The position numbers were made by a program, and so were the translations under genes. The notes beneath the pieces were generated by a model, which saw nothing but the letters and a program-made list of their open reading frames with translations, did no database searches and was not told the DNA's origin. Below, in pieces: positions 8,078-46,299 of a stretch of DNA of 64,000 nt. Positions within the stretch are counted from its first letter, which is position 1. Each line of letters starts with the position of its first letter. This DNA is from Escherichia phage arall, in the sequence record MN850584.1. One strand, written 5' to 3'.

Positions 8078-8890
8078 TTACTTAGTCAAATGATCTTCTA
8101 TCATTTTTATGAAAGCAGGATTGCTAAAAGCATCTGCTGCCTTTTCTCTGTAAACAAAGACTCCTCTATCTTCGTAAAGAAGAGTTTCTTCGTAATTAAT
8201 TCCTGGGTTAACAACAATCATTTTTGTACCCATATTAAGTGCAGGGAATAATTCCCAATTAAAATTGATAACTTGGTTTGAACATCCTACTACAACAACC
8301 AAATCTTGCATGGTCAAAGTATCAAACAAGTGAGCCATATCTGCATACAAAGGTGCAGCCTCACCAAAAAATACAACATTAGGCTTCACCCAGTTATAAT
8401 CATCTATGTTTATACTATTGTAACCAATATCTACCAGTGTTTTGTAATCTCCAGGATGCATACGGTAAACTACTTCAGGAAGATACCCGTGCACGTGAAT
8501 AACAGAATCCCTGTCCACACCTGCTCGCTCTAGTAGATCATCAACGTTTGTTGTCAAGTTTACTACTTGGTTAGGATATTCCTTAAACCACTTTGCTATT
8601 TGAATATGTGCAGCATTAGGTTGTACATCTTTAAGCTCAACACGTCTTTTGTTATAAAATTCGTGTGTTTTGGCATACAAGTCCATACCGTTCTCGTCTA
8701 CACCACCGACCACTGGAAGATCTGGAGATGTTCTCACACGATAACCTGCTTGGAAAGCTCCAATATCGCAGACCTCTTCTAAGTCATATTCTTCCCATAA
8801 GGCACGACCACTATCTGTGTCTGTTCGGAACGTTCGAATCCCACTGTCTGCACTTAAACCTGCGCCACTAACAAAAATTACTCTTCGCAT
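8078..8890 (-). CDS. Sir2-family (sirtuin-like) NAD-binding protein, no zinc-ribbon
   Basis: 270 aa; GAGLSADSGIRTFR (GAGIS/GIPxFR), TTNVDDLLERAG (TQNID-like), VIHVHG (catalytic His), VVVGCS; no CxxC pairs. Confidence 0.8.
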   Translation of the reverse strand: MRRVIFVSGAGLSADSGIRTFRTDTDSGRALWEEYDLEEVCDIGAFQAGYRVRTSPDLPVVGGVDENGMDLYAKTHEFYNKRRVELKDVQPNAAHIQIAKWFKEYPNQVVNLTTNVDDLLERAGVDRDSVIHVHGYLPEVVYRMHPGDYKTLVDIGYNSINIDDYNWVKPNVVFFGEAAPLYADMAHLFDTLTMQDLVVVVGCSNQVINFNWELFPALNMGTKMIVVNPGINYEETLLYEDRGVFVYREKAADAFSNPAFIKMIEDHLTK

Positions 8891-8901
8891 TCAATATCCT
8901 C

Positions 8902-9447
8902 TTAGTAATCATCATCCCAAGAAGATGCGTCGTAACGCTCTTCCTCTTCGAAATCCCAATTAATTTCTACTCCAAAATCTAAAAACAATTTAACAATGTT
9001 TTCTGTAGAGTAGTATTTATCATAAGCATTAGCTAGTTCCCAATACTTGTCACTCAATTTTTTATATTTAGGATCATTATAGTCATAATCTACTTTATAA
9101 CCATAATCATACATCTCTTGTTTAGCTTTAAGCATAGCTTCTGGTGTAAGAAGATTAGGGAACGGACGATTTCTTTCTTTTAACTTAGAAGCAATCCAGT
9201 TTGCAACATTCGCCACTTCACCATCTCGATTATCACCTAAACAACTTGCATAATCTCCATCTTCGTAAGTGCCTAAATCCCCACAGACCACATGTACAAT
9301 ACTTGAATACGATCCACACGTTTCACAATCTGAAAAAGTGTCTACTGTTGTAATATCAATAGATAAAACTGGTAAAGCCATAGCTTCTTTCACACAAGCC
9401 TCCTCATATAATAACATATCATCAAAACCCATATATCCTCCACACAA
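8902..9447 (-). CDS. hypothetical protein, acidic C-terminus
   Basis: 181 aa ORF. Confidence 0.55.
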   Translation of the reverse strand: MCGGYMGFDDMLLYEEACVKEAMALPVLSIDITTVDTFSDCETCGSYSSIVHVVCGDLGTYEDGDYASCLGDNRDGEVANVANWIASKLKERNRPFPNLLTPEAMLKAKQEMYDYGYKVDYDYNDPKYKKLSDKYWELANAYDKYYSTENIVKLFLDFGVEINWDFEEEERYDASSWDDDY

Positions 9448-10221: not shown

Positions 10222-11211
10222 CTATTCCTCCATACATTTAAGAATATGTGCAATGACAGGTATAGTCCAACCGTTGCCTAACATCTTATATGCTTGTGTG
10301 TTACTACTCACTTTAAAGTAATCATCTGGAACACCTTGTAAGCGGCAACACTCTTTAACCGTTAACTTTCTGTAATGTACGCCTTCACTCAATTTTTCAA
10401 AGGCATCTAGATATCTTCCAGGTGGAATGTAAGCTAATAGTACGTCTTTCGGCACAGTCGTGAGGCAACGAGTTTTTTCACTGTCCTGAACTTCCAAACA
10501 ATGTACCAAACGATCAGTTTTAGATGTACTACGTTTGCCATTCTCATTAATTCTACGCCCATATATTGCTGCCGGATAAAAAACCAGTTGTCTGCGACTC
10601 TTTTCAAAATACTGTTCTATATTACCACCTTTGGCATAATTTGCATCTATGCAATAAGCCTTATCTCTGTCTACAATACTATCATCTTCAATAATATCTT
10701 GCAACACTTCATTGGTAATCTCCCAGGGTTTTATTTCCCAGTTGCACCAGTATAAACGTTGTCTATTCTGTGCCGTGAAATCTGCGGAGTTAATGAATAC
10801 GGGATCAACACCTAAGTAACTTGTGATCACGTTTTCCCACTCCACTTTCATCTTAACGTTTTCAAGCATGAACTTAACATTAGGATTAAACTTTTTAATA
10901 TGTTCAAGAATTTCAACATATTCGAAGAATAGCTTAGATCGCGGATCTTGAAAGTTCAAACCCTTACCAGAAGAAGAGAAGCCTTGACACGGACTACCAC
11001 CTAACAAAAGATCAATTTCTCCCCACGGGATATCCCATTCTCTCCATTTTGTAACATCACCTAACTGAATAATATCTGGAAAATTTGCTTGGCTTTCAGC
11101 TATGGCAAATTTGTCTAATTCTGAAGCATAATATGTATCTACTTCAATACCTGCACTTTTTAGCGCAAGCATTCCTCCTGACATACCATCAAAAAGACTT
11201 AAAACTTTCAT
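10222..11211 (-). CDS. DNA (cytosine-5)-methyltransferase
   Basis: 329 aa; LFDGMSGG (motif I), GGSPCQGFS (catalytic PCQ), MLENVK (ENV). Confidence 0.85.
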   Translation of the reverse strand: MKVLSLFDGMSGGMLALKSAGIEVDTYYASELDKFAIAESQANFPDIIQLGDVTKWREWDIPWGEIDLLLGGSPCQGFSSSGKGLNFQDPRSKLFFEYVEILEHIKKFNPNVKFMLENVKMKVEWENVITSYLGVDPVFINSADFTAQNRQRLYWCNWEIKPWEITNEVLQDIIEDDSIVDRDKAYCIDANYAKGGNIEQYFEKSRRQLVFYPAAIYGRRINENGKRSTSKTDRLVHCLEVQDSEKTRCLTTVPKDVLLAYIPPGRYLDAFEKLSEGVHYRKLTVKECCRLQGVPDDYFKVSSNTQAYKMLGNGWTIPVIAHILKCMEE

Positions 11212-11213
11212 TA

Positions 11214-11624
11214 TTACTTCTTCTCCTTAACACTAGCTGGTAATTCTGCCTTGAGGCAGAAGTTTAAACGGTAAGCCTCATTCTCATTTAAAAGTACAGA
11301 TTCACACGATAACCAGAACAAGAGATCCTCAATACCAGGGCTGTTAAGCCAACAGTGCAGAAGAGAATGTTGTTCTATATCAATGTAATTTAGTAACAAG
11401 GCTTGTAAGGCGTAACTAGTTCCTGTCGTTTTTGCTTTTTCAAGGATGATATTGTGTTTACTAACAACTTTCTTCTTAAGACCAAACCATTTATTAACAA
11501 CAACAGTCTCTTCTTGTAGTTGTTTTCTTATTTTCTCACATTCTTTAACTACAATCTGCATCTTATCCACTGCTGATTGAAGTTGTTCTTTTGTTGGGTT
11601 TACAAAATAGTCACTATAGTACAT
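11214..11624 (-). CDS. hypothetical protein
   Basis: 136 aa ORF. Confidence 0.55.
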   Translation of the reverse strand: MYYSDYFVNPTKEQLQSAVDKMQIVVKECEKIRKQLQEETVVVNKWFGLKKKVVSKHNIILEKAKTTGTSYALQALLLNYIDIEQHSLLHCWLNSPGIEDLLFWLSCESVLLNENEAYRLNFCLKAELPASVKEKK

Positions 11625-11682
11625 GCTAATCTTCTCCTCTTCTGTTTTTCTGTAGTTTATTCGAAAAAACTGGTGTTGTCAA

Positions 11683-11708
11683 CAAAAAACCCGCCGAAGC
11701 GGGTTTAT
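11683..11708. terminator. terminator hairpin
   Basis: CCCGCCGAAGCGGG hairpin flanked by A-run and T-rich run. Confidence 0.5.
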
Positions 11709-11709
11709 A

Positions 11710-11967
11710 TTATTCTACAGGAACTTCTTCACCAAGAGAAACTTCTAAACGGAATGCTTTACTTTCAATACACTCACTACCTTTTAGAAAATCAAATTGC
11801 ACTATAGACTGACTTAATAGGATAGATAGAATCACATCACAATCTTCACTAGGAGCTAGATGTTTGTATTCTTCCTTCAAGGTAACATCATAAAAACATA
11901 AATCCCCTACTCCTAGTTCATCCCATCCTTCCCACGCATCTACAAAGTTAAACTCTAAACCTTTCAT
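11710..11967 (-). CDS. hypothetical protein
   Basis: 85 aa ORF. Confidence 0.5.
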   Translation of the reverse strand: MKGLEFNFVDAWEGWDELGVGDLCFYDVTLKEEYKHLAPSEDCDVILSILLSQSIVQFDFLKGSECIESKAFRLEVSLGEEVPVE

Positions 11968-12488
11968 ACAACCTCCTCGTAGTTGTTATTGTGTTTTACT
12001 GTCTCAACATACAATAAAGATTCCATCTGTAATACATTACCAGAAATAATAAACCCGTAAGCCATTTCAGATGTGTCTATATCATATGCCCCGTCTTCCG
12101 GTTTAGCAAAGTGTAAAACTATTTCATCTGGGTTTTCTTCATCCCATAGTTTAGAAATTTTCCGAACCAGAATGTTAGCTAAAATAGTTGACATTCGGGA
12201 TAAAGCTGTATCCTCGTATCTTTTAAAACCTAACCAATAGAGGTTAAGAATTTCTACTTCTTCTTGTGTTAAGTTTTTGTCTAAAGTAATCAGATCTGTA
12301 GGATACATCGTTTTTGTTGAACCTACTGTTACAAAACCTGGAGTGTTATGAAAAACAATCTTAACTTTATCACGTATAAAGTTTAAACCTTGTGCCTCAA
12401 CTATATATTGTATTGTAGGTACAATATCGTTTGTTACATCAATAAAACTATCTTTAATGACGCTTATATTATTTCTGGACAAGACCAT
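11964..12488 (-). CDS. hypothetical protein
   Basis: 174 aa ORF. Confidence 0.55.
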   Translation of the reverse strand: MVLSRNNISVIKDSFIDVTNDIVPTIQYIVEAQGLNFIRDKVKIVFHNTPGFVTVGSTKTMYPTDLITLDKNLTQEEVEILNLYWLGFKRYEDTALSRMSTILANILVRKISKLWDEENPDEIVLHFAKPEDGAYDIDTSEMAYGFIISGNVLQMESLLYVETVKHNNNYEEVV

Positions 12489-13050
12489 TCTCCTCTAAAA
12501 TAGGCTTAATAAATTCGAAAATTTGTTTTTTACTTTTATCTCGAATATTAAAACAAGGAACATTAAACTTTTTAGCCAACATCCAAGCTGTTCTTGTACC
12601 ACCTAAAGGATCTCCATTTTTATCTGTATTTGCACAAGCTAAAAGAAAACAAGATGGTTTTGGATTCTCAAGATCTCTTCCAAGAACTTGGTGGATATTT
12701 CTTTGATGTAATTTTTTAGCACCTTGAGATAATCTGTCCCAAGCTGGATGCAATTCTTTTGCATATTGCAAGGTTAGAGCATAGTTTACACTATCTGGTC
12801 TGTCAAGAACAATAACCTCTCCCTCTATTTCATTACCTTTAAACGAGAGCCAAGGGATGTATATTTCTTTCTTTGTATTGTTCCCACTATCATATACCCC
12901 GCATTCAAATGCGGAATCTGCACCTTCTGCTTTACCAGATCGCAAAATGAACCATGTAGATAACCATTTTGCAACAGATACCATAGTATCCCATTCTTCG
13001 TCTGTAATATCTCTGCTACCAACACCTGTGTAGAATAAATCGCTCATGGT
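12469..13050 (-). CDS. Rossmann-fold SLOG/DprA-like nucleotide-binding protein
   Basis: ORF track trimmed to M28 (RBS AAGGAGAA); YTGVGSR...RSGKAEGADSAF resembles the GxGxR...G(A)xGxD signature of Smf/DprA/LOG folds. Confidence 0.45.
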   Translation of the reverse strand, partial: TMSDLFYTGVGSRDITDEEWDTMVSVAKWLSTWFILRSGKAEGADSAFECGVYDSGNNTKKEIYIPWLSFKGNEIEGEVIVLDRPDSVNYALTLQYAKELHPAWDRLSQGAKKLHQRNIHQVLGRDLENPKPSCFLLACANTDKNGDPLGGTRTAWMLAKKFNVPCFNIRDKSKKQIFEFIKPILEENGLVQK

Positions 13051-13057
13051 TTTCTCC

Positions 13058-13378
13058 TTAACAAGTAATATTGGGAGTAACAATTGGATTAACAATTGGA
13101 GTAATAGGGTACGTAAACCAAGGGCTTCCAATTTCCCAAGGATAATAAGGTCTACGAGGATCGTATGGAGGAGTTACTTCAGGCTTTTTCCAAATCTCCG
13201 CTAATTGTTTCTTCCATTTATCCCTTGCTGTCTCATTATCTTCATCCAACTGTTCATCATTATCTTTTATTTCTGGTTTTGGAAATAAAAGCTCTTTGAC
13301 TAATTCAACATCTTCCGTCTCAATAGTAGTTTCTTTCGTAAGTTCTCCTACTGTTTCTTTAATTGTGATTTTATACAT
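13058..13378 (-). CDS. hypothetical Pro/Glu-rich protein
   Basis: 106 aa ORF. Confidence 0.5.
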   Translation of the reverse strand: MYKITIKETVGELTKETTIETEDVELVKELLFPKPEIKDNDEQLDEDNETARDKWKKQLAEIWKKPEVTPPYDPRRPYYPWEIGSPWFTYPITPIVNPIVTPNITC

Positions 13379-14124
13379 TAGTCCTCCTCTAAAGTAGAAT
13401 AAAATTGTAACGTATTTGAATCATCAAAATATGCAAAGGTTAAATTACCATTGAAGCAAGATCCTGTGTCCATATATACCCTATTACTGCTAATCACAGG
13501 TTTAGGAACATAAGAATGCCCGTGAAATACATAATCTACTCCTGAAACCCTAGGAAGAAGAATCCCTTCAAGTGCGCAATCTATCATATCACGATCCCAC
13601 ATTAAAGATTCTGTGAATTGAGAAACTTGCTCTTTATTCATATTCAAACAAAATGGCAAAACTTCTGTCACTGGTAAATGTTCCAAAACTGAAGGATACC
13701 CACCGTGAATAAAGCCTAGTTTCATATTACGATAATTGACAACAAGTACAACAGGTAAATCTTCTAGCATCAAAGCAAGAGCAGTTGCACCCTCTTCTCC
13801 ACACTCGTCTAGAACTGTATGGCCTCCGTTCTGAAACCAACATTCGTAATATCGTCTATCACCTTCTAACAACCCTTTAATCATCATATCTTCATGATTT
13901 CCACGAATACCATAACGATTTAGCTTTCTGGTGAATTCAACAACACAACGAAAATTCTGCTTGCCGCGATCTGTAAGATCTCCTAAAGATACAACAACAT
14001 CTTGATCTCGGATACCTAAAGTATTAACACCTTTCTGGTACAAATCAAAGCAACCATGTAAATCACCAATAATAAACAGGTCTTGATCATCTTTTACACT
14101 AATTTCTTGATATACTAACATCAA
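13378..14124 (-). CDS. Ser/Thr protein phosphatase (calcineurin-like metallophosphoesterase)
   Basis: 248 aa; GDLHGC, GDLTDRG, GNHEDM motifs. Confidence 0.85.
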   Translation of the reverse strand: MMLVYQEISVKDDQDLFIIGDLHGCFDLYQKGVNTLGIRDQDVVVSLGDLTDRGKQNFRCVVEFTRKLNRYGIRGNHEDMMIKGLLEGDRRYYECWFQNGGHTVLDECGEEGATALALMLEDLPVVLVVNYRNMKLGFIHGGYPSVLEHLPVTEVLPFCLNMNKEQVSQFTESLMWDRDMIDCALEGILLPRVSGVDYVFHGHSYVPKPVISSNRVYMDTGSCFNGNLTFAYFDDSNTLQFYSTLEED

Positions 14125-14447
14125 CTCTCCTCAAAATCCATAAGTATAAAGATATTAACTTTACCTTCTATATTATGTTCTACAACAAGATCTGCAAATT
14201 CTTTGTAGGCTTTTTCTTCTATTTGTTCAATGTGAGACGCTACATCTTTGTATATAGCGTCACCATCTACTTTAACAAGGAGGAATAGAGATCTTACTTC
14301 AATCTCTTTATTTTTACGGGGTAGAAAATCGACGGCTTCTTGTATACGCCAGCCGAGATACCCTGGAGTCCTTTGAATATCCTCCAAATGACTTTCTAAG
14401 ATTTCCCTTCCTTTGTCTATTAAAGCCTGTTCTGTCGTTATTTTCAT
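14121..14447 (-). CDS. hypothetical protein
   Basis: 108 aa ORF. Confidence 0.5.
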   Translation of the reverse strand: MKITTEQALIDKGREILESHLEDIQRTPGYLGWRIQEAVDFLPRKNKEIEVRSLFLLVKVDGDAIYKDVASHIEQIEEKAYKEFADLVVEHNIEGKVNIFILMDFEES

Positions 14448-14457
14448 CCCCTTCTCC

Positions 14458-15030
14458 TTAATGTGTTAATGAAACTGCGTAGCTAAACACAGGTTCAGAT
14501 ATTACATCGGCTACAGTAATAAAAACGTCTTCGTCTTGAGTTGTTTCTACACGACATACAGTTACACCATTCACCACGAATTCAACGCAATGTGGAATAT
14601 CTTCACAAACGAAGGTAGTGTAAGTAACACCCAAAGCATCATACAAAGATTTAACAGTGTTTGCAAGTGCCGCAGTTTCTTCTTTTTCTGAGACAATGAA
14701 TGCTGTAACAACAAGATTGTTTGCATAGTTTAGACTGTCCTCTATAGCCAATGATTTACAAGGTAGTAATGCAAAATATTTACCTGGTTTAATCAGACCT
14801 GCTTCCCATTGATTCAAAATTGCCTGGGATGGTTTAGTAATATAAAACAGATTTTCACTTGGGTTATCAATATTACTTCTGGCGATACAACGTGAAGGAT
14901 TATTATTATCAAATACATGATCAAAATCTACACAAACAGGTAAACTGAAAGGTGTGAATTTTTTACCTAATAATCCTATGGCTGATAATATGTTTGCTGT
15001 GCTTATCTTCCCGTTAAAAGCTAAACGCAT
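14458..15030 (-). CDS. hypothetical protein
   Basis: 190 aa ORF. Confidence 0.55.
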   Translation of the reverse strand: MRLAFNGKISTANILSAIGLLGKKFTPFSLPVCVDFDHVFDNNNPSRCIARSNIDNPSENLFYITKPSQAILNQWEAGLIKPGKYFALLPCKSLAIEDSLNYANNLVVTAFIVSEKEETAALANTVKSLYDALGVTYTTFVCEDIPHCVEFVVNGVTVCRVETTQDEDVFITVADVISEPVFSYAVSLTH

Positions 15031-15254: not shown

Positions 15255-15917
15255 TTATTTAATATTCAATTTTGCACAAAGACGTTGTACCGCTTTGGCA
15301 TCGAACAAACTCCCACGAATAGTTCTCTTTCCTGATTCATTCAGATGTTTTGCAATCGTCATATATGGCGTTTTACAAGCTCTGTATGCAACTAAAGAAT
15401 CTTTTAAAGAAAGCGCAAACTCTTTTGAGCGTTTTGCTTCTTCCGTTTTCGTATAATCTGTTCTTTTGTATTTAGGGTTTGCTGCACCAAGAAGCGTTCC
15501 CTTCGCTTTTGCTACTTTAAGGCTCTTCTTAACACGATCAGATATTGCACGAGCCTCTTCTTCTGCCAGAACTGCTAAAATATTTATTATCATATTTTCA
15601 GCGGAGGGCATAGTTGCTATTCGTACATTAATCATCTCTAACAAGGTTGCAACAGAAGCTGTGTTACGTCCAAGACGGTCAACCTTAGCAACAACAAGTG
15701 TAGCACCTGTTTCTTTGCAAAGATTAACAGCTTTTACAAGCTCTCTACGTTGCTTCCAATCGCCTTTACCCGAATAAAACTCTGCAAAGCTACCTACAAT
15801 AGTATAATTTTCTTGTGAATCCAGGAAGCGTTGGATATCTGCTTCCTGTGATTCTATACCATACTGGTTGCCTTGTTGTTTCTTCTTAGAAAGTCGATGA
15901 TACAGTACAAACTTCAT
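15255..15917 (-). CDS. serine recombinase (resolvase/invertase family)
   Basis: 220 aa; N-terminal YHRLSKKKQ (catalytic Ser), LVVAKVDRLGRN, ISDRVKKSLKVAKAKG; C-terminal HTH-like region. Confidence 0.75.
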   Translation of the reverse strand: MKFVLYHRLSKKKQQGNQYGIESQEADIQRFLDSQENYTIVGSFAEFYSGKGDWKQRRELVKAVNLCKETGATLVVAKVDRLGRNTASVATLLEMINVRIATMPSAENMIINILAVLAEEEARAISDRVKKSLKVAKAKGTLLGAANPKYKRTDYTKTEEAKRSKEFALSLKDSLVAYRACKTPYMTIAKHLNESGKRTIRGSLFDAKAVQRLCAKLNIK

Positions 15918-16190: not shown

Positions 16191-16429
16191 TCGTTGTTAC
16201 GAGCATTTTCAAGAACCTTGACAACTTCTGCATACTCTACAGCTAAACCAGCACACACTTCAGCTTGTTTTGCAATTGCTTGTTTAAAGAACATAGCGAT
16301 TGCAACACTCTGTGTTGTGTGAATGTTATCTGCTTTAGTTGATACGTGAAGATCAAAATCTTCTTCATCAAAGGTGAGTTCCATAGTAACAATAAATTTC
16401 TCGGTCATAAAAATGCTCCTCTTAAACAA
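16178..16429 (-). CDS. hypothetical protein
   Basis: 83 aa ORF. Confidence 0.45.
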   Translation of the reverse strand: MFKRSIFMTEKFIVTMELTFDEEDFDLHVSTKADNIHTTQSVAIAMFFKQAIAKQAEVCAGLAVEYAEVVKVLENARNNDWEE

Positions 16430-16931
16430 AATAGAAAGGTTGAGTTAAACCCAGCCTGTTTTTTGGGTCGTAGACGTACCAAGCATATGCTGTCTTATCA
16501 GTACCACCTGCAACAAAAGATGGTCGTTCAGAAAGAACAATCAAATTTGTTGGTGGATTCTGTTTATGGAATTCCCTTCGTTTAATAGACTCTAGGAAAC
16601 CAAGACGCAACAAGTATATGCAAACGTCTGCTTCTTTTAAGCTCTTTTGCAAGAACTCAAGTGCAAGTTTGAATGGGGGATTTGTGATTATAATATCCGG
16701 CTTAGTATACCATTCATGGTTAAAATAATCTTTCCCTTCTTCTAACTCACAATATTCTGATCCTTCTGGAAAATGTTGATAAATTGCAGCAGCAGCGCCT
16801 TTACACGGTTCTGCAAAAATAAAACCTTCTTCTTTAAGGTTATTAAAATCTATTACACTAAATAATGCATTTATACATTTTTGTGGAGTAGGATAGTAAT
16901 CAGTTGGTGGACGATCATACTTATTTGCCAC
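16422..16931 (-). CDS. small DNA N6-adenine methyltransferase-like protein
   Basis: 169 aa; DYYPTP and TNPPF (motif IV of amino-methyltransferases). Confidence 0.65.
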   Translation of the reverse strand: MANKYDRPPTDYYPTPQKCINALFSVIDFNNLKEEGFIFAEPCKGAAAAIYQHFPEGSEYCELEEGKDYFNHEWYTKPDIIITNPPFKLALEFLQKSLKEADVCIYLLRLGFLESIKRREFHKQNPPTNLIVLSERPSFVAGGTDKTAYAWYVYDPKNRLGLTQPFYFV

Positions 16932-17390: not shown

Positions 17391-18044
17391 TTAATTATCA
17401 GAGGATACTTTATCAAGTTTTTCAGAGACTGTCAATACTTTTTCTTGTGATTCTTTCATTTCTGCTAAAATACTTTCAGCTTCATCACTATCAGGATCAC
17501 CAGTCAACAGCATACTAATTAGTTGCTCCTTGCTGAAGTTCAGAATATCTTCCGCTGTTAGTTCCAGTTGTTCTTCGATCTCTTCAATAAAAGTTTCACC
17601 ACCGGAAAAAGCATCTCGTAGTTTTGCAACTTCCATCGCTTCTTCTGGAGTTGCCCCTGCATCTAAAGCTGCTAAAGCAAAATCTGCCCCACTACCAACA
17701 GCATAATAATCTTCAGTTAAAGGATATGCTCGCGTTGGATTATTACCCTCGTGCATATAAATTTTACCGTCTGGGTGAACAACCAATGCCACAAACTCTT
17801 CATCTTCTTTATCAGGATCTGACTGGATCACCAAACCTGGGATTGTCTCTTGTGCTGCTTGGCATTGTAAGTTTTGTTCGAACCAAGAAAAGAAAGTCAG
17901 GATAGAAGACAGACGTCCTGCACCACCAACAAGGTAATCCCCAATTTTACGCACTTTCTTGAAATTTAAAGTGTCTACACGACTACCTACTGTTACTTTA
18001 CCATCAGATAGAATTTTGTTATGTGTTGCAATAATTGTTGTCAT
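17391..18044 (-). CDS. HslV-like (proteasome beta-type Ntn-hydrolase) peptidase with acidic C-terminal extension
   Basis: 217 aa; N-terminal MTTII (Thr nucleophile), KKVRKIGDYLVGGAG, GSGADFALAA parallel E. coli HslV MTTIV...KKVRR...GFAGG...GSGG. Confidence 0.6.
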   Translation of the reverse strand: MTTIIATHNKILSDGKVTVGSRVDTLNFKKVRKIGDYLVGGAGRLSSILTFFSWFEQNLQCQAAQETIPGLVIQSDPDKEDEEFVALVVHPDGKIYMHEGNNPTRAYPLTEDYYAVGSGADFALAALDAGATPEEAMEVAKLRDAFSGGETFIEEIEEQLELTAEDILNFSKEQLISMLLTGDPDSDEAESILAEMKESQEKVLTVSEKLDKVSSDN

Positions 18045-34828: not shown

Positions 34829-35713
34829 TTATTTTTGAATAGTTGACTTAATAAGGTCTTGCATAATACCACGGATTTCATTAAAGCACAGAAGGACAGA
34901 TGCTTCAAAAGATCCTTCTTCATCGTTAAAGTATTTAGGGAATTTAATACCACTCAACTTAAATTCTTTATCAACAATAAAGTTAACGAAACCGTCATAT
35001 TCCAGGCCAATGGCAACAACGTGCTTACCATCTTCCATAAGTTCTACTGCACGAGATTCATAAAGGGATTCTTTACTCCATACAACCACACCTTCAGAAT
35101 CTTCAAGTTTAATATAATTACCAAGGGTCAGTCGTTCAGCCTCATGTTCTTCTAAGATGGTATCAAAACCTTTAATAATGGCTTCTTCGTGTACACTAAA
35201 CGGCAGAACTGGGAAAGTACCCAACACCTCACGAAGAAACACAGCAATATCTTCACTAATTTTCTTAGTACCATTAAGAACGTAGGTAATACTGTTCTCA
35301 GTGTCTACAACAACATAGTTATAGAAATCATCTGCCTCTGTTTCTGGGAGCAGAGAAAACACGATATCAGCCTCAATTGCTTTTTTACTTTCTTTATCCA
35401 AGAAGAATTCTTTAGTAGGATTTGCAGCAATAAACTCTTGTTCCATCTCTTGGAGTTTTTCATTAAGAATGCGTTTAACTTTTTTCTTGTTAACTTTCTT
35501 AACAGATTGCCCTACTTTAATAACCTCTAAACCAGAGAACACTTTTACATAGGAACCATCATCTTCAAAACGAACAAGACCAATGGTATGTGCTTGTTGA
35601 CCCTGTGCCACAACAAAATCCAGCGGTTTGTCTGTTACTGTGTTCAGTGCGGAAATAGACAGACCATCACCAGAAATCAGGGTTACGCAAGATTTGAAAT
35701 TTTTAGCAAACAT
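34829..35713 (-). CDS. hypothetical protein
   Basis: 294 aa ORF. Confidence 0.55.
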   Translation of the reverse strand: MFAKNFKSCVTLISGDGLSISALNTVTDKPLDFVVAQGQQAHTIGLVRFEDDGSYVKVFSGLEVIKVGQSVKKVNKKKVKRILNEKLQEMEQEFIAANPTKEFFLDKESKKAIEADIVFSLLPETEADDFYNYVVVDTENSITYVLNGTKKISEDIAVFLREVLGTFPVLPFSVHEEAIIKGFDTILEEHEAERLTLGNYIKLEDSEGVVVWSKESLYESRAVELMEDGKHVVAIGLEYDGFVNFIVDKEFKLSGIKFPKYFNDEEGSFEASVLLCFNEIRGIMQDLIKSTIQK

Positions 35714-43600: not shown

Positions 43601-44494
43601 ATGAAAGTTAGTATTCTACATGGTGTTGACTGTTATGTTACTGATGTAGACGTTAAAGTCTTTACATTCTCTGGTGGAGAACAACATGTTCAACTAGATA
43701 CGAATCTATCAGGTTTCAATCATGCTACAGACAGAATCTTACTCTCTTTAGAAGTAAGATCTGCTAAAGACTTGATGACTTTGGTTATGACTAAGAATGC
43801 ATTGGACAATATGCTATATCATAAACCATATTGTGTTGATTTGCTCATGTTGTATGTGCCATATGCACGACAAGACAGAGTGTGTGAACCTGGGGAAGCA
43901 TTCGGAGTTAAAGCATTTGCTTCTATAATTAATTCATTAAATTTCTCACGTGTTATCGTTGCTGATCCACATAGTGATGTTACTCCAGCGGTGTTTGACA
44001 GACTCTGTGTAATACCTCAAGAAGAGATTGCTTACGAAACTTTAAAGTGGAAGTTACGTATGGAGAATTTTGCTCTTGTTAGTCCTGATGGTGGTGCTCT
44101 TAAGAAAATATTTAAATTATCTAAGAAAATGTCTTTAGATGTGTTCTGTGCAGAGAAGGTTAGAGATACTGCAACAGGTGCTATTGTTCGTACAGACATT
44201 TCTGTACAGGATTTCAATAAGCGTAACCTGATGATCGTAGATGATATCTGTGACGGCGGTAGAACTTTTATTGAATTGGCTAAAGTGCTACGTGCTCGTA
44301 ACGCAGGTAAGATTGAGTTATATGTTACACACGGTATCTTTTCTAAAGGTCTTAAAGAGTTAAGTGAGCACTTTGACTGCATTCATTCTCTTAATGTGTG
44401 GGAAGATAACATCCAAGAAGATTCCGGTGTTCTTGTTAAGAATCAGTCAGATTTGCAACAACAAATTGTATCTCCATACGTGTGGAATTTTTAA
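43601..44494 (+). CDS. PRPP-synthetase-like phosphoribosyl pyrophosphokinase (candidate ADP-ribose pyrophosphokinase, Adps-like)
   Basis: 297 aa; VPYARQDR, VSPDGGALKK, IVDDICDGGRT motifs; RBS AAGGAGA. Confidence 0.8.
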   Translation: MKVSILHGVDCYVTDVDVKVFTFSGGEQHVQLDTNLSGFNHATDRILLSLEVRSAKDLMTLVMTKNALDNMLYHKPYCVDLLMLYVPYARQDRVCEPGEAFGVKAFASIINSLNFSRVIVADPHSDVTPAVFDRLCVIPQEEIAYETLKWKLRMENFALVSPDGGALKKIFKLSKKMSLDVFCAEKVRDTATGAIVRTDISVQDFNKRNLMIVDDICDGGRTFIELAKVLRARNAGKIELYVTHGIFSKGLKELSEHFDCIHSLNVWEDNIQEDSGVLVKNQSDLQQQIVSPYVWNF

Positions 44495-44504
44495 ATAATA
44501 AGTG

Positions 44505-44533
44505 TTGACAATAGGGAGTATGCTTAGTAAGAT
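44505..44533 (+). promoter_or_regulatory. sigma70-like promoter (TTGACA-N17-TAAGAT)
   Basis: consensus -35 with 17-nt spacer. Confidence 0.45.
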
Positions 44534-44565
44534 ACTCCCACACTAACAAACAAGGAGACATAACT

Positions 44566-46299
44566 ATGAATATTTTTGCACCTTTTGCTACTGATTGGTA
44601 TAAACCTGGTCACAAGCAGATGTACAACCAAAATACAAAACTCATTTTCTCTAATTTAACTCCTCGTAATGATAAAAACTTTGCACACTATGCAGATCGT
44701 GAAGCACGTGGTGTAATTGTTTTAGGTATTCGTCGAGCAGTTACTGATGCTCTTGTAACTATGTGGGATAGCTTCTTTAAAATGTCTCGTAGTGCAGCAG
44801 TAAATAAGTTTTATCGTATGTCTAAAAATGCATTAGGTGCTTCTTCTCCTTCTGCTGAATGTTGGGGAGAATTGCACGATTTAGGTTATCTTCCGCTGGA
44901 AGTTCGATCTCTGCCAGAAGGTGTTTTGTGTCCTATTGGTGTTCCTGTGTTTACTGTGCATAATACTTTAGAAAAATTCTTTTGGTTAACTAACTATGTG
45001 GAAACACTATTGTCAGATGAAACTTGGAAGACAATGACTAATGCTACAGCAGCTTTTCAGTATAAGCGTATTGCTATGGCATATGCGATGGCAACGTGTG
45101 ATAATATTGATCACGTTAACTTCCAGTGTCATGATTTTAGCCTACGTGGTTTAAGTAATATTGAAGATGGTTATAAGAGTGGTATCGCTCATTTGGCATC
45201 GTTCACAGGCACAGATAATATTCTGGCTATTGAAACTGTGCATGATTATTATGGTATTGATTATGATCAGTTTGTTGCAGGTTCTATTCCGGCAACAGAA
45301 CATTCAGTAGCAACGACTAACATTGGAGCTATTGTTGAAGATCTGAAGAAACATTTCCCACATCTTAAAGATGATGTTGATGGGCTTCGTTATGTAGCAG
45401 AGAAAGAGTTTCTTCGCCGCTATATTGAAGAAATTGTTCCAGAAGGTTTTTGTTCATATGTAGCAGATTCTTATGATTACTGGGCTGTCTTGACTCGCAT
45501 TCTGGTAGAATTGAAAGAGTCCATTATGTCACGAAATGGTCGTCTTGTTATTCGTCCAGATTCAGGAGATCCGGTTAAAGTTGTTGCAGGATACAATGTT
45601 GAATCTTTTGCTAACTATGAAGACCTTTTAAATAATGGTATTGCTACAGCCACTGAAGTAGTTCATTTGGCTGATGTTAATAAGTATTACAATGTTCTTC
45701 AGGATTGCAGTGTTGCTGATTGTATTGATGAAACTTATGAGATTCCTTATTGTGAAGCAGTAGGTTCTATTCAAATCCTTTGGGAAGTGTTTGGTGGTAC
45801 TATCAACCGAAAAGGCTACAAGGTTCTTGATCAGCACATCGGTATGATTTATGGTGATTCTATTACTGTTGAACGAGAACACGAGATCTTACGCCGACTG
45901 AAGAAGAAAGGTTTTGCAGCTTCCAATATTGTATTTGGTGTTGGTAGTTATACTTATCAGTTCAATACACGAGATACTTTTGGTTTTGCTGTTAAAGCAA
46001 CAGGTAGTATCATCGGTGAACACGAAATTTTGGTAAGTAAGGAGCCTAAAACTGATCCTGGTAAACGCTCTGCAAAAGGTTTTATTAAGGTTGTTAAGGA
46101 TACAAATGGTAAACTTTCTCTTGTGGATAATCTTTCTTTTAAAGATATTCAAGATGAAGACAATGAGTTAAAAGTTATCTTCAGGGATGGTACGGTTATT
46201 ACACCACAAGTAGAAGGACGTGATGAAACATTTACTGATATCCGCAACCGTGTTGATGTAGAGGTTCTTCGTACTATGGGAACCATCCAGGTTGACTAA
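44566..46299 (+). CDS. nicotinamide phosphoribosyltransferase-like (NadV/NAMPT family; candidate Namat)
   Basis: 577 aa; N-terminal FATDWYKPGHKQMY and overall NAMPT-like organisation; RBS AAGGAGA. Confidence 0.8.
   Translation: MNIFAPFATDWYKPGHKQMYNQNTKLIFSNLTPRNDKNFAHYADREARGVIVLGIRRAVTDALVTMWDSFFKMSRSAAVNKFYRMSKNALGASSPSAECWGELHDLGYLPLEVRSLPEGVLCPIGVPVFTVHNTLEKFFWLTNYVETLLSDETWKTMTNATAAFQYKRIAMAYAMATCDNIDHVNFQCHDFSLRGLSNIEDGYKSGIAHLASFTGTDNILAIETVHDYYGIDYDQFVAGSIPATEHSVATTNIGAIVEDLKKHFPHLKDDVDGLRYVAEKEFLRRYIEEIVPEGFCSYVADSYDYWAVLTRILVELKESIMSRNGRLVIRPDSGDPVKVVAGYNVESFANYEDLLNNGIATATEVVHLADVNKYYNVLQDCSVADCIDETYEIPYCEAVGSIQILWEVFGGTINRKGYKVLDQHIGMIYGDSITVEREHEILRRLKKKGFAASNIVFGVGSYTYQFNTRDTFGFAVKATGSIIGEHEILVSKEPKTDPGKRSAKGFIKVVKDTNGKLSLVDNLSFKDIQDEDNELKVIFRDGTVITPQVEGRDETFTDIRNRVDVEVLRTMGTIQVD

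Follow-up and report, generated by a model that had tools for sequence, protein, structure and literature searches.

We investigated a gene encoding a SLOG (Smf/DprA-LOG Rossmannoid) protein in a stretch of 64,000 nucleotides from Escherichia phage arall (MN850584.1; the whole stretch is called the window below), a phi92-like E. coli myovirus (Stephanstirmvirinae, Justusliebigvirus). The product is the ortholog of Phi92_gp047 (99.5% identical; hereafter gp047). Enzymes that release ADP-ribose (ADPr) are frequent fusion partners of its relatives, and for this reason countering host defenses based on nicotinamide adenine dinucleotide (NAD) appears likelier than a role in recombination. We tentatively propose, with somewhat less than even confidence, that gp047 is an ADPr-linked counter-defense accessory that binds ADP-ribosylated single-stranded DNA (ssDNA) or a soluble ADPr derivative. 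The gene, its fold and its family are already known, and the functional idea has been published before as a prediction; the link to DarT1-type NADAR domains, which was enabled by work published after 2022, is a testable refinement and not a discovery.

12469..13047, minus strand: SLOG gene, Phi92_gp047 ortholog, 192 aa, single-domain, with matches to phrog_768 and, through an AlphaFold2 (AF2) model, to SLOG folds

Fusions to ADP-ribose-processing domains

Of all results, the domain fusions are the most informative. About 14 of the 150 best family representatives far exceed the SLOG domain in length, and ten of these were scanned, of which four carry NADAR and two carry DUF4326. P0157 and P0251 show a NADAR-SLOG architecture, P0122 and P0123 are polyvalent proteins of ~1,480 aa that combine NADAR, YAcAr and LDcluster4 SLOG domains, and P0205 and P0206 are DUF4326-SLOG proteins with DUF4326 at the N terminus. 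The fusion proteins match the gp047 family profile with E-values of 1e-48 to 1e-64.

Bacterial loci provide further combinations. In Acidobacteria, a DarT1-associated NADAR antitoxin domain (PF22397, E 3e-32) is followed by SLOG and YAcAr domains in a protein (L058) whose architecture was confirmed with Pfam, and three other loci (L071, L076 and L088) contain SLOG open reading frames (ORFs) of similar length. Other loci encode SLOG-Macro (L051; PF01661, E 2.5e-22), SLOG-DUF4326 (L037; E 9e-19) and, according to Pfam, YAcAr-SLOG-YAcAr (L034) proteins. No DarT toxin was found beside the bacterial fusion genes. SLOG, NADAR and Macro, which are fused elsewhere, are separate genes in the phi92-like lineage.

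On two conjugative-element-like contigs, we observed polyvalent proteins of ~1,200-1,480 aa (L019 6001..10428 and L034 3..3602) that join up to three SLOG families (gp047-type, YAcAr and LDcluster4). The first of these also has a NADAR domain and adjoins RadC, HigB and a large helicase.

Iyer et al. 2022 (PMC9503650) had described viral SLOG proteins joined to NADAR, Macro and DUF4326, the same fusions that we recovered independently. According to their survey, SLOG domains occur in 7% of small, 19% of medium and 31% of jumbo phages, and these domains are predicted to sense, process or degrade ADPr-derived signals. The viral proteins in that study include stand-alone SLOG proteins of larger phages, as gp047 is. 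However, most viral SLOGs were placed there in a YpsA-like clade, with soluble cADPr-type substrates proposed, whereas the only Pfam affinity of the gp047 family is to DprA (plus LDcluster4). A DNA-linked ligand for gp047 is plausible because later work has shown ADP-ribosylated DNA to be a target of NADAR, which reverses the ADP-ribosylation of guanine (PMC11125620), and a DarT1-antitoxin-like enzyme of T4-like phages neutralizes DarTG1 (PMC11825919). The AdfB-type orphan NADAR, an antitoxin-like counter-defense of T4-like phages (PMC11825919), resembles gp047 in being borne by mobile elements without a toxin partner, but differs in fold and has an established hydrolase activity. An earlier sequence-only reading of this DNA had cast the SLOG protein as a candidate processor or sink of signaling nucleotides. 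The NADAR, Macro and DUF4326 fusions and the published prediction are compatible with that proposal, but ssDNA or ADP-ribosylated DNA is at least an equally good ligand candidate.

Fold, conserved motifs and relation to DprA

The gene begins with an ATG at 13047-13045 and ends with a stop codon at 12471-12469, both read directly from the sequence. The ORF had first been delimited as 12469..13050; it is a real gene on the minus strand, but a start at 13050 adds one codon (Thr) before the Met. Residues are numbered here from Met1, and alignments built from 12469-13050 read one higher. The SLOG signature quoted at that stage is present in the translation (YTGVGSRD...LRSGKAEGADSAFECG).

Direct searches with the gp047 sequence alone returned no match in PDB sequences, Pfam or NCBIfam, so that only profiles and structure were informative. 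The protein matches the phrog_768 profile (E 2.2e-60, residues 3-187 against profile positions 2-184 of 191) and has 384 homologs in a set of 5.8 billion proteins. The AF2 model, computed with 51 homologs (pLDDT 96.5, pTM 0.92), has a three-layer alpha/beta Rossmannoid core that superposes on solved SLOG proteins, and Foldseek places HpDprA at the top rank (E 7e-6). As judged from this model, the assignment of gp047 to the SLOG fold is solid, bearing out the SLOG/DprA-like fold proposed from the letters, and the nearest single SLOG family does not appear clear on fold alone. In BFVD, the gp047 family forms a tight structural group (TM 0.65-0.85), from which the YAcAr/DUF2493 viral SLOGs and a Marseillevirus SLOG protein are separate (TM 0.42-0.47).

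The conserved motifs of gp047 are G10-S11-R12 and R36-S37-G38-x-A40-x-G42-x-D44; P65-W66..F69 and H100-P101; L113-H114-x-R116-N117-x-x-Q120..G123 on the RN helix; and G149-G150-T151-R152-T153-A154 and N167. GxGSR, RN..Q and GGT are invariant or nearly so in 259 family sequences, and the family-specific invariants are P65-W66..F69, H100-P101, H114, Q120 and N167. Four loops are kept, namely, GSR after strand 1, SGxAxGxD, the RN helix and the GGT loop, and to our knowledge it is these loops that grip the phosphate-ribose of the nucleotide in every solved SLOG protein.

By sequence comparison, DprA is the nearest family. The DprA model PF02481 is matched below its gathering threshold (29.6 bits, not reached by gp047) by 39 of 52 family members, with a best E-value of 3.6e-6, and the fusion proteins score 16-21 bits against it, also below the cut-off. 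LDcluster4 is the only other SLOG family in Pfam that is matched (6 of the 52), and the LOG, YpsA and YAcAr models (PF03641, PF06908 and PF10686) gave no match among these members. When the family profile was searched against PDB sequences, DprA chains ranked first (E about 0.1). For comparison, we used the Rossmann domains of Hp, Sp and Rp DprA, ShosA and E. coli Smf, rebuilt from alignments (reference structures: PDB 4LJK/4LJR, 3UQZ and 3MAJ for DprA/Smf and 8ZVA for the DprA-like antitoxin ShosA). Local hhalign comparison of the family with these five sequences covered the first two motifs, in the N-terminal 48 columns (E 3.4e-5); the global alignment, which has low statistical support by itself (probability 6.7%), brings four motifs into register (GSR with G[ST]R, SGxAxGxD with its counterpart, LHxRN with FxxRN and GGT with SG[ST]). 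Three arginines, R52, R143 and R170, are needed for ssDNA binding in HpDprA (ShosA paper, PMC12961424), and the first two correspond to R12 and R116 of gp047, both invariant in the family.

Annotated relatives carry the name "DprA-like DNA recombination-mediator protein", inherited from phrog_768. A minimal DprA-like mediator that binds phage ssDNA and loads host RecA, or that protects or processes replication or recombination intermediates, would agree with DprA being nearest in sequence, with the four collinear motifs, with the invariance of two of the three ssDNA-contact arginines, and with the suggestion of Iyer et al. 2021 that jumbo-phage DprA copies are extra ssDNA-binding proteins. Nevertheless, we consider such a function unlikely. 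DprA has N-terminal SAM and/or C-terminal DML1/winged-helix-like domains, whereas gp047 consists of the Rossmann core alone and has no PF02481 match at E <= 0.1; the third ssDNA arginine, the DprA-invariant SE motif and the second Arg of the RNR motif are not kept in the family; and between strand 3 and the RN helix the elements follow each other in a different order. The fusion partners process ADPr, and none is a recombination domain. Furthermore, the annotation of the whole phi92-like genome includes an RdgC-like protein but no recombinase of the RecA/UvsX type, and the exonuclease and RdgC-like genes lie ~21 kb from the SLOG gene. As far as its motifs indicate, gp047 would be a phosphate/nucleotide binder of the DprA type that nonetheless fails formal DprA membership.

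34829..35713, minus strand: RdgC-like protein, annotated 'putative recombination protein' (PF04381, E 2e-19)

Relation to other SLOG families

The SLOG fold is common to gp047 and ThsA, the Thoeris effector that senses 3'cADPR (7UXS), and both ThsA domain types, SIR2 and SLOG, are present in the phage, as separate genes 3.6 kb apart. In line with the sequence-only reading and the prediction of Iyer et al. 2022, gp047 might sequester or hydrolyze soluble immune signals or toxic products that derive from NAD (such as gcADPR, His-ADPR and ADPR-1P), with no role on DNA. This explanation overlaps the broader ADPr-linked proposal and, taken in this strict form, seems doubtful to us. SLOGs of the ThsA and YAcAr/YpsA types are farther from the family than DprA in sequence, with no Pfam match in the 52 members; the YAcAr-type viral SLOGs are set apart in BFVD by the TM values given above; and the anti-Thoeris proteins in the literature searched (Tad1-7, RyDEP) include none described there as SLOG. 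Where YAcAr does occur in the gp047 family, the polyvalent protein contains it as a domain of its own.

Variability at the position of the LOG catalytic Glu also speaks against this explanation. LOG/YgdH/PpnN proteins (PF03641) have a catalytic Glu in the PGGxGTxxE motif and a GGGxxG loop, whereas gp047 has GxGSR in place of the latter, and position 156, which corresponds to the Glu, is variable; therefore, LOG-type chemistry is not conserved in the gp047 family.

We regard as very improbable a further explanation, that gp047 inhibits a host sensor at the protein level, like 'ORF83', a protein annotated as Smf/DprA and reported to counter Salmonella Avs3. In its favor, the anti-Avs3 protein of the EVADES preprint is a phage protein with a SLOG fold, an RN motif and relatives fused to DUF4326. 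Yet the residues reported for it (R89, N90, T112 and D114) do not fit R116/N117...T151-R-T153 of gp047 when the two are compared by the reported residues only, its giant-virus relatives have DUF4326 at the C terminus as opposed to the N terminus in P0205 and P0206, and the structure of the Marseillevirus SLOG protein matches only weakly (TM 0.44). ORF83 is not contained in the accessory-gene preprint of Silas et al.

A candidate counter-defense function linked to ADP-ribose

Under the ADPr-linked counter-defense proposal, gp047 would be expressed from the non-structural gene block of the phage, and its conserved pocket would bind a ligand that bears ADPr, either ssDNA whose bases have been ADP-ribosylated, as in an attack of the DarT type, or a soluble product or signal derived from ADPr. 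The protein might then act together with the separately encoded NADAR and Macro hydrolases of the lineage and present, shield or possibly cleave its ligand. The fold, the conservation of the motifs, the size of the family, the fusions and the gene contexts are observed, whereas we infer the ligand, any catalysis and the defense system targeted. The two kinds of ligand are roughly equally likely: the DprA affinity, the DarT1-type NADAR fusions and the SSB and primase neighbors fit ADP-ribosylated ssDNA, and the precedent of ThsA and the published prediction fit soluble ADPr derivatives.

A more specific version, to which we give distinctly less credence, is that the phrog_768 family is a DprA-derived module that specifically recognizes ADP-ribosylated ssDNA or even cleaves the N-glycosidic bond between base and ribose, the latter perhaps by LOG-like chemistry with a different set of catalytic residues, such that it would be a stand-alone anti-DarT factor of virulent phages and conjugative elements. 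If true, this would explain the DarT1-type NADAR and Macro fusions as well as the SSB and primase neighbors in the establishment regions of integrative and conjugative elements (ICEs).

Several observations weigh against a counter-defense function tied to ADPr. Fusions are a minority in the family, most members of which stand alone, and the gene is stably conserved in whole phage subfamilies, unlike many anti-defense genes with a patchy distribution. With respect to a DNA-borne ligand, the position equivalent to HpDprA R170 (position 156) is variable (M/L/K/V/N/E), and the isoelectric point is only mildly basic in the family (median 7.9) and 6.3 in gp047, although it is uninformative as a proxy for DNA binding. 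The commonest phage neighbors are genes of nucleotide metabolism (ThyA, dUTPase, ribonucleotide reductase, glutaredoxin, PhoH and dCMP deaminase), which would also fit a role in the nucleotide pool or in replication. Finally, SLOG is unmentioned in the NADAR/DarTG1 literature searched and in the paper on a 2026 biochemical screen for cADPR-degrading phage proteins, which recovered RyR-domain glycosidases.

Distribution of the family

The gp047-type gene was detected by tblastn in 1,510 of 50,697 phage records (~3%), and the ten most frequent host genera listed for the phage copies all belong to Proteobacteria. The phage lineages involved include Justusliebigvirus, Phapecoctavirus-type relatives, the Pseudomonas PAK_P3/PaP1 groups, N4-like roseophages, Zobellviridae, Chaseviridae, jumbo phages and many T4-like genera, including Krischvirus, Moonvirus and Klebsiella and Acinetobacter T4-likes. 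When 1.84 billion representatives were searched exhaustively with the family profile, the result was 5,900 clusters (50% identity) at E <= 1e-3 and 1,793 clusters at E <= 1e-30, and a scan of bacteria with a 7-sequence alignment of the family, using one genome per species, identified at least 357 loci. Annotation pipelines describe as a recombination mediator, on weak grounds, a protein encoded in about 3% of sequenced phages and in many conjugative elements. If it acts instead in the NAD+/ADPr conflict, on ADP-ribosylated DNA or ADPr-derived signals, the family would be a widespread component of counter-defense alongside NADAR, Macro and NARP1, and a systematic misannotation would be corrected.

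Gene neighborhoods

The SLOG gene is surrounded by tightly packed genes on the minus strand only. Over bases 11000-15000, the identity is 99.4% with phage inny and 98.7% with phi92, and 55 phage records match at 95% or more.

11964..12488, minus strand: downstream ORF, 174 aa, phrog_8569; its start overlaps the 3' end of the SLOG gene by 20 nt
13054..13059, minus strand: Shine-Dalgarno sequence AAGGAG, 6 nt upstream of the SLOG ATG, read from the sequence
13058..13378, minus strand: upstream ORF, 106 aa, acidic and Pro-rich, phrog_15301, between the phosphatase and SLOG genes
13378..14124, minus strand: metallophosphatase of the PPP family (lambda-PPase/NinI/PrpA-like; PF00149, E 3e-13; phrog_246, E 5e-76)

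The Shine-Dalgarno sequence overlaps the TAA stop (13060-13058) of the 106-aa ORF. The 20-nt overlap indicates that the phrog_8569 ORF is likely co-transcribed with the SLOG gene, but it is not conserved as a SLOG partner elsewhere, as the flanking genes in other phages belong to different PHROGs.

The phosphatase, the second gene upstream of the SLOG gene with the 106-aa ORF between them, is indeed there, as the sequence-only reading had it. It scores 50.9 bits against PF00149 (cut-off 21.5), and its translation contains GDLHG, GDLTDRG and GNHE, following the pattern GDxHG, GDxxDRG, GNHE; in related annotated phages, the ATG chosen gives 13378..14121. The match to the NCBIfam model PrpA/PrpB NF008516 (E 4e-27) is below the cut-off, which is consistent with a protein that is related to PrpA/B but is not an equivalog. 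The functional link with the SLOG gene implied by that reading is not supported: across nine other phage lineages sampled, the neighbors differ and fall into different PHROGs. A phosphatase within 3 kb of the SLOG gene occurs only in phi92-likes and Pseudomonas phage K4, and on these grounds we treat the adjacency as incidental and the phosphatase as most likely functionally unrelated to the SLOG gene. We also considered a conserved operon partner among the downstream ORF, the upstream ORFs and the phosphatase and rejected it, given that the flanking genes elsewhere belong to unrelated PHROGs. The neighbors of the SLOG gene in other phages were as follows.

Pseudomonas phage K4: thymidylate synthase, PhoH, glutaredoxin, ribonucleotide reductase
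Ralstonia phage RP13: dUTPase, ribonucleotide reductase
Roseophage: class II ribonucleotide reductase, exonuclease, DNA polymerase
PAK_P3: endolysin, ligase, dCMP deaminase, UvrD-like helicase
T4-likes: RNA ligase 2
Faunus: SSB
Metagenomic phage of ~150 kb: PhoH, endolysin, glutaredoxin, ribonucleotide reductase
T4-like contig: thymidylate synthase

The thymidylate synthase, dUTPase and ribonucleotide reductase genes suggest an enzyme of the nucleotide pool, which would support phage DNA synthesis either as a (d)NMP N-glycosidase of the LOG/PpnN type or by modifying nucleotides in another way. We find this quite improbable: the Glu of PGGxGTxxE is absent, there is no PF03641 match, and the fusions indicate ADPr and not nucleotide biosynthesis, whereas adjacency is weak evidence in phage replication modules, which mix nucleotide and DNA-handling genes. 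For the recombination mediator discussed above, the favorable neighbors are SSB (in Faunus and in ICEs), the UvrD-like helicase and ligase of PAK_P3, and the exonuclease and DNA polymerase of the roseophage.

In bacteria, the SLOG gene is located in regions of conjugative elements. Solirubrobacterales have it after genes for a TraG/VirD4 coupling protein, SSB and a RepB/CHC2 primase, in that order; in Acidobacteria, RadC lies upstream of the SLOG gene; and the contig of P0122 encodes a large AAA_34/Helicase_C_4 protein, HigB/HTH and RadC. Clusters C1 and C6 were left out as antisense artefacts of crude ORF calling in the high-GC bacterial loci. On Solirubrobacterales chromosomes (L043-L050; for example, L046 791..7862), we observed an ICE-like block, conserved in many related metagenome-assembled genomes, in which TraG/VirD4, SSB, RepB/CHC2 primase, an unknown gene, SLOG and two further unknowns follow one another; the unknowns (clusters C8, C3 and C10) have no Pfam match.

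NAD+ and ADP-ribose genes elsewhere in the lineage

Gene content at the genome level was read from phage EmilieFrey, which is 98.8% identical across the 4-kb query region. The phage genome is rich in genes of NAD/ADPr counter-defense: EmilieFrey encodes separate NADAR (PF08719, E 2.5e-36) and Macro proteins, and the window itself contains the following three genes.

8078..8890, minus strand: SIR2-family protein (PF02146, E 1e-22), 3.6 kb from the SLOG gene
43601..44494, plus strand: PRPP-synthetase-like gene (Pfam domain), adjoining the NAPRTase-family gene
44566..46299, plus strand: NAPRTase-family (NampT-like) gene (Pfam domain)

Judging from Pfam domains only, the pair at 43601..46299 would have the architecture of NARP1 (Adps + Namat), a counter-defense pathway that reconstitutes NAD+. 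The 'phage phosphatases' that extend NARP1 were considered as possible Metallophos proteins like the one next to the SLOG gene, and this was rejected: they are Macro-domain (Poa1p-like) proteins, and therefore there is no link to the neighboring Metallophos phosphatase.

Outside the window, the NADAR gene of EmilieFrey (L016 27084..27635) adjoins a CapR/T5orf172 protein. A three-gene cluster on the minus strand, also outside the window (L016 6875..9090), encodes a Macro protein, a ComF-like PRTase_3 and a HAD hydrolase, for which a nucleotide or ADPr function is possible.

Other genes of the region

The region is flanked on both sides by methyltransferase genes on the minus strand, a Dcm-type C5-cytosine methyltransferase with a visible PCQ motif (10222..11211) and a small N6-adenine methyltransferase-like gene (16422..16931), both of which probably serve anti-restriction self-methylation. 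Two further minus-strand genes carry the name 'histidyl/aminoacyl-tRNA synthetase': one of 190 aa (14458..15030), so named in related phages and matching phrog_4806, and one of 176 aa (8902..9432), so named by the EmilieFrey annotation only. As neither product has a Pfam or NCBIfam match, the name looks doubtful; EmilieFrey has two more genes with such names elsewhere in the genome.

A serine recombinase/resolvase (15255..15917, minus strand; PF00239, E 8e-22) is encoded in this phage, which is regarded as strictly virulent. The minus-strand gene at 17391..18044 encodes an HslV/proteasome-subunit-like protein with a weak PF00227 match (E 2e-5), and in PAK_P3, too, an 'HslV family peptidase' gene lies a few kb away from the SLOG gene. 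The sign of the GC skew changes near ~8000 and ~44000, coinciding with switches of the coding strand between gene blocks.

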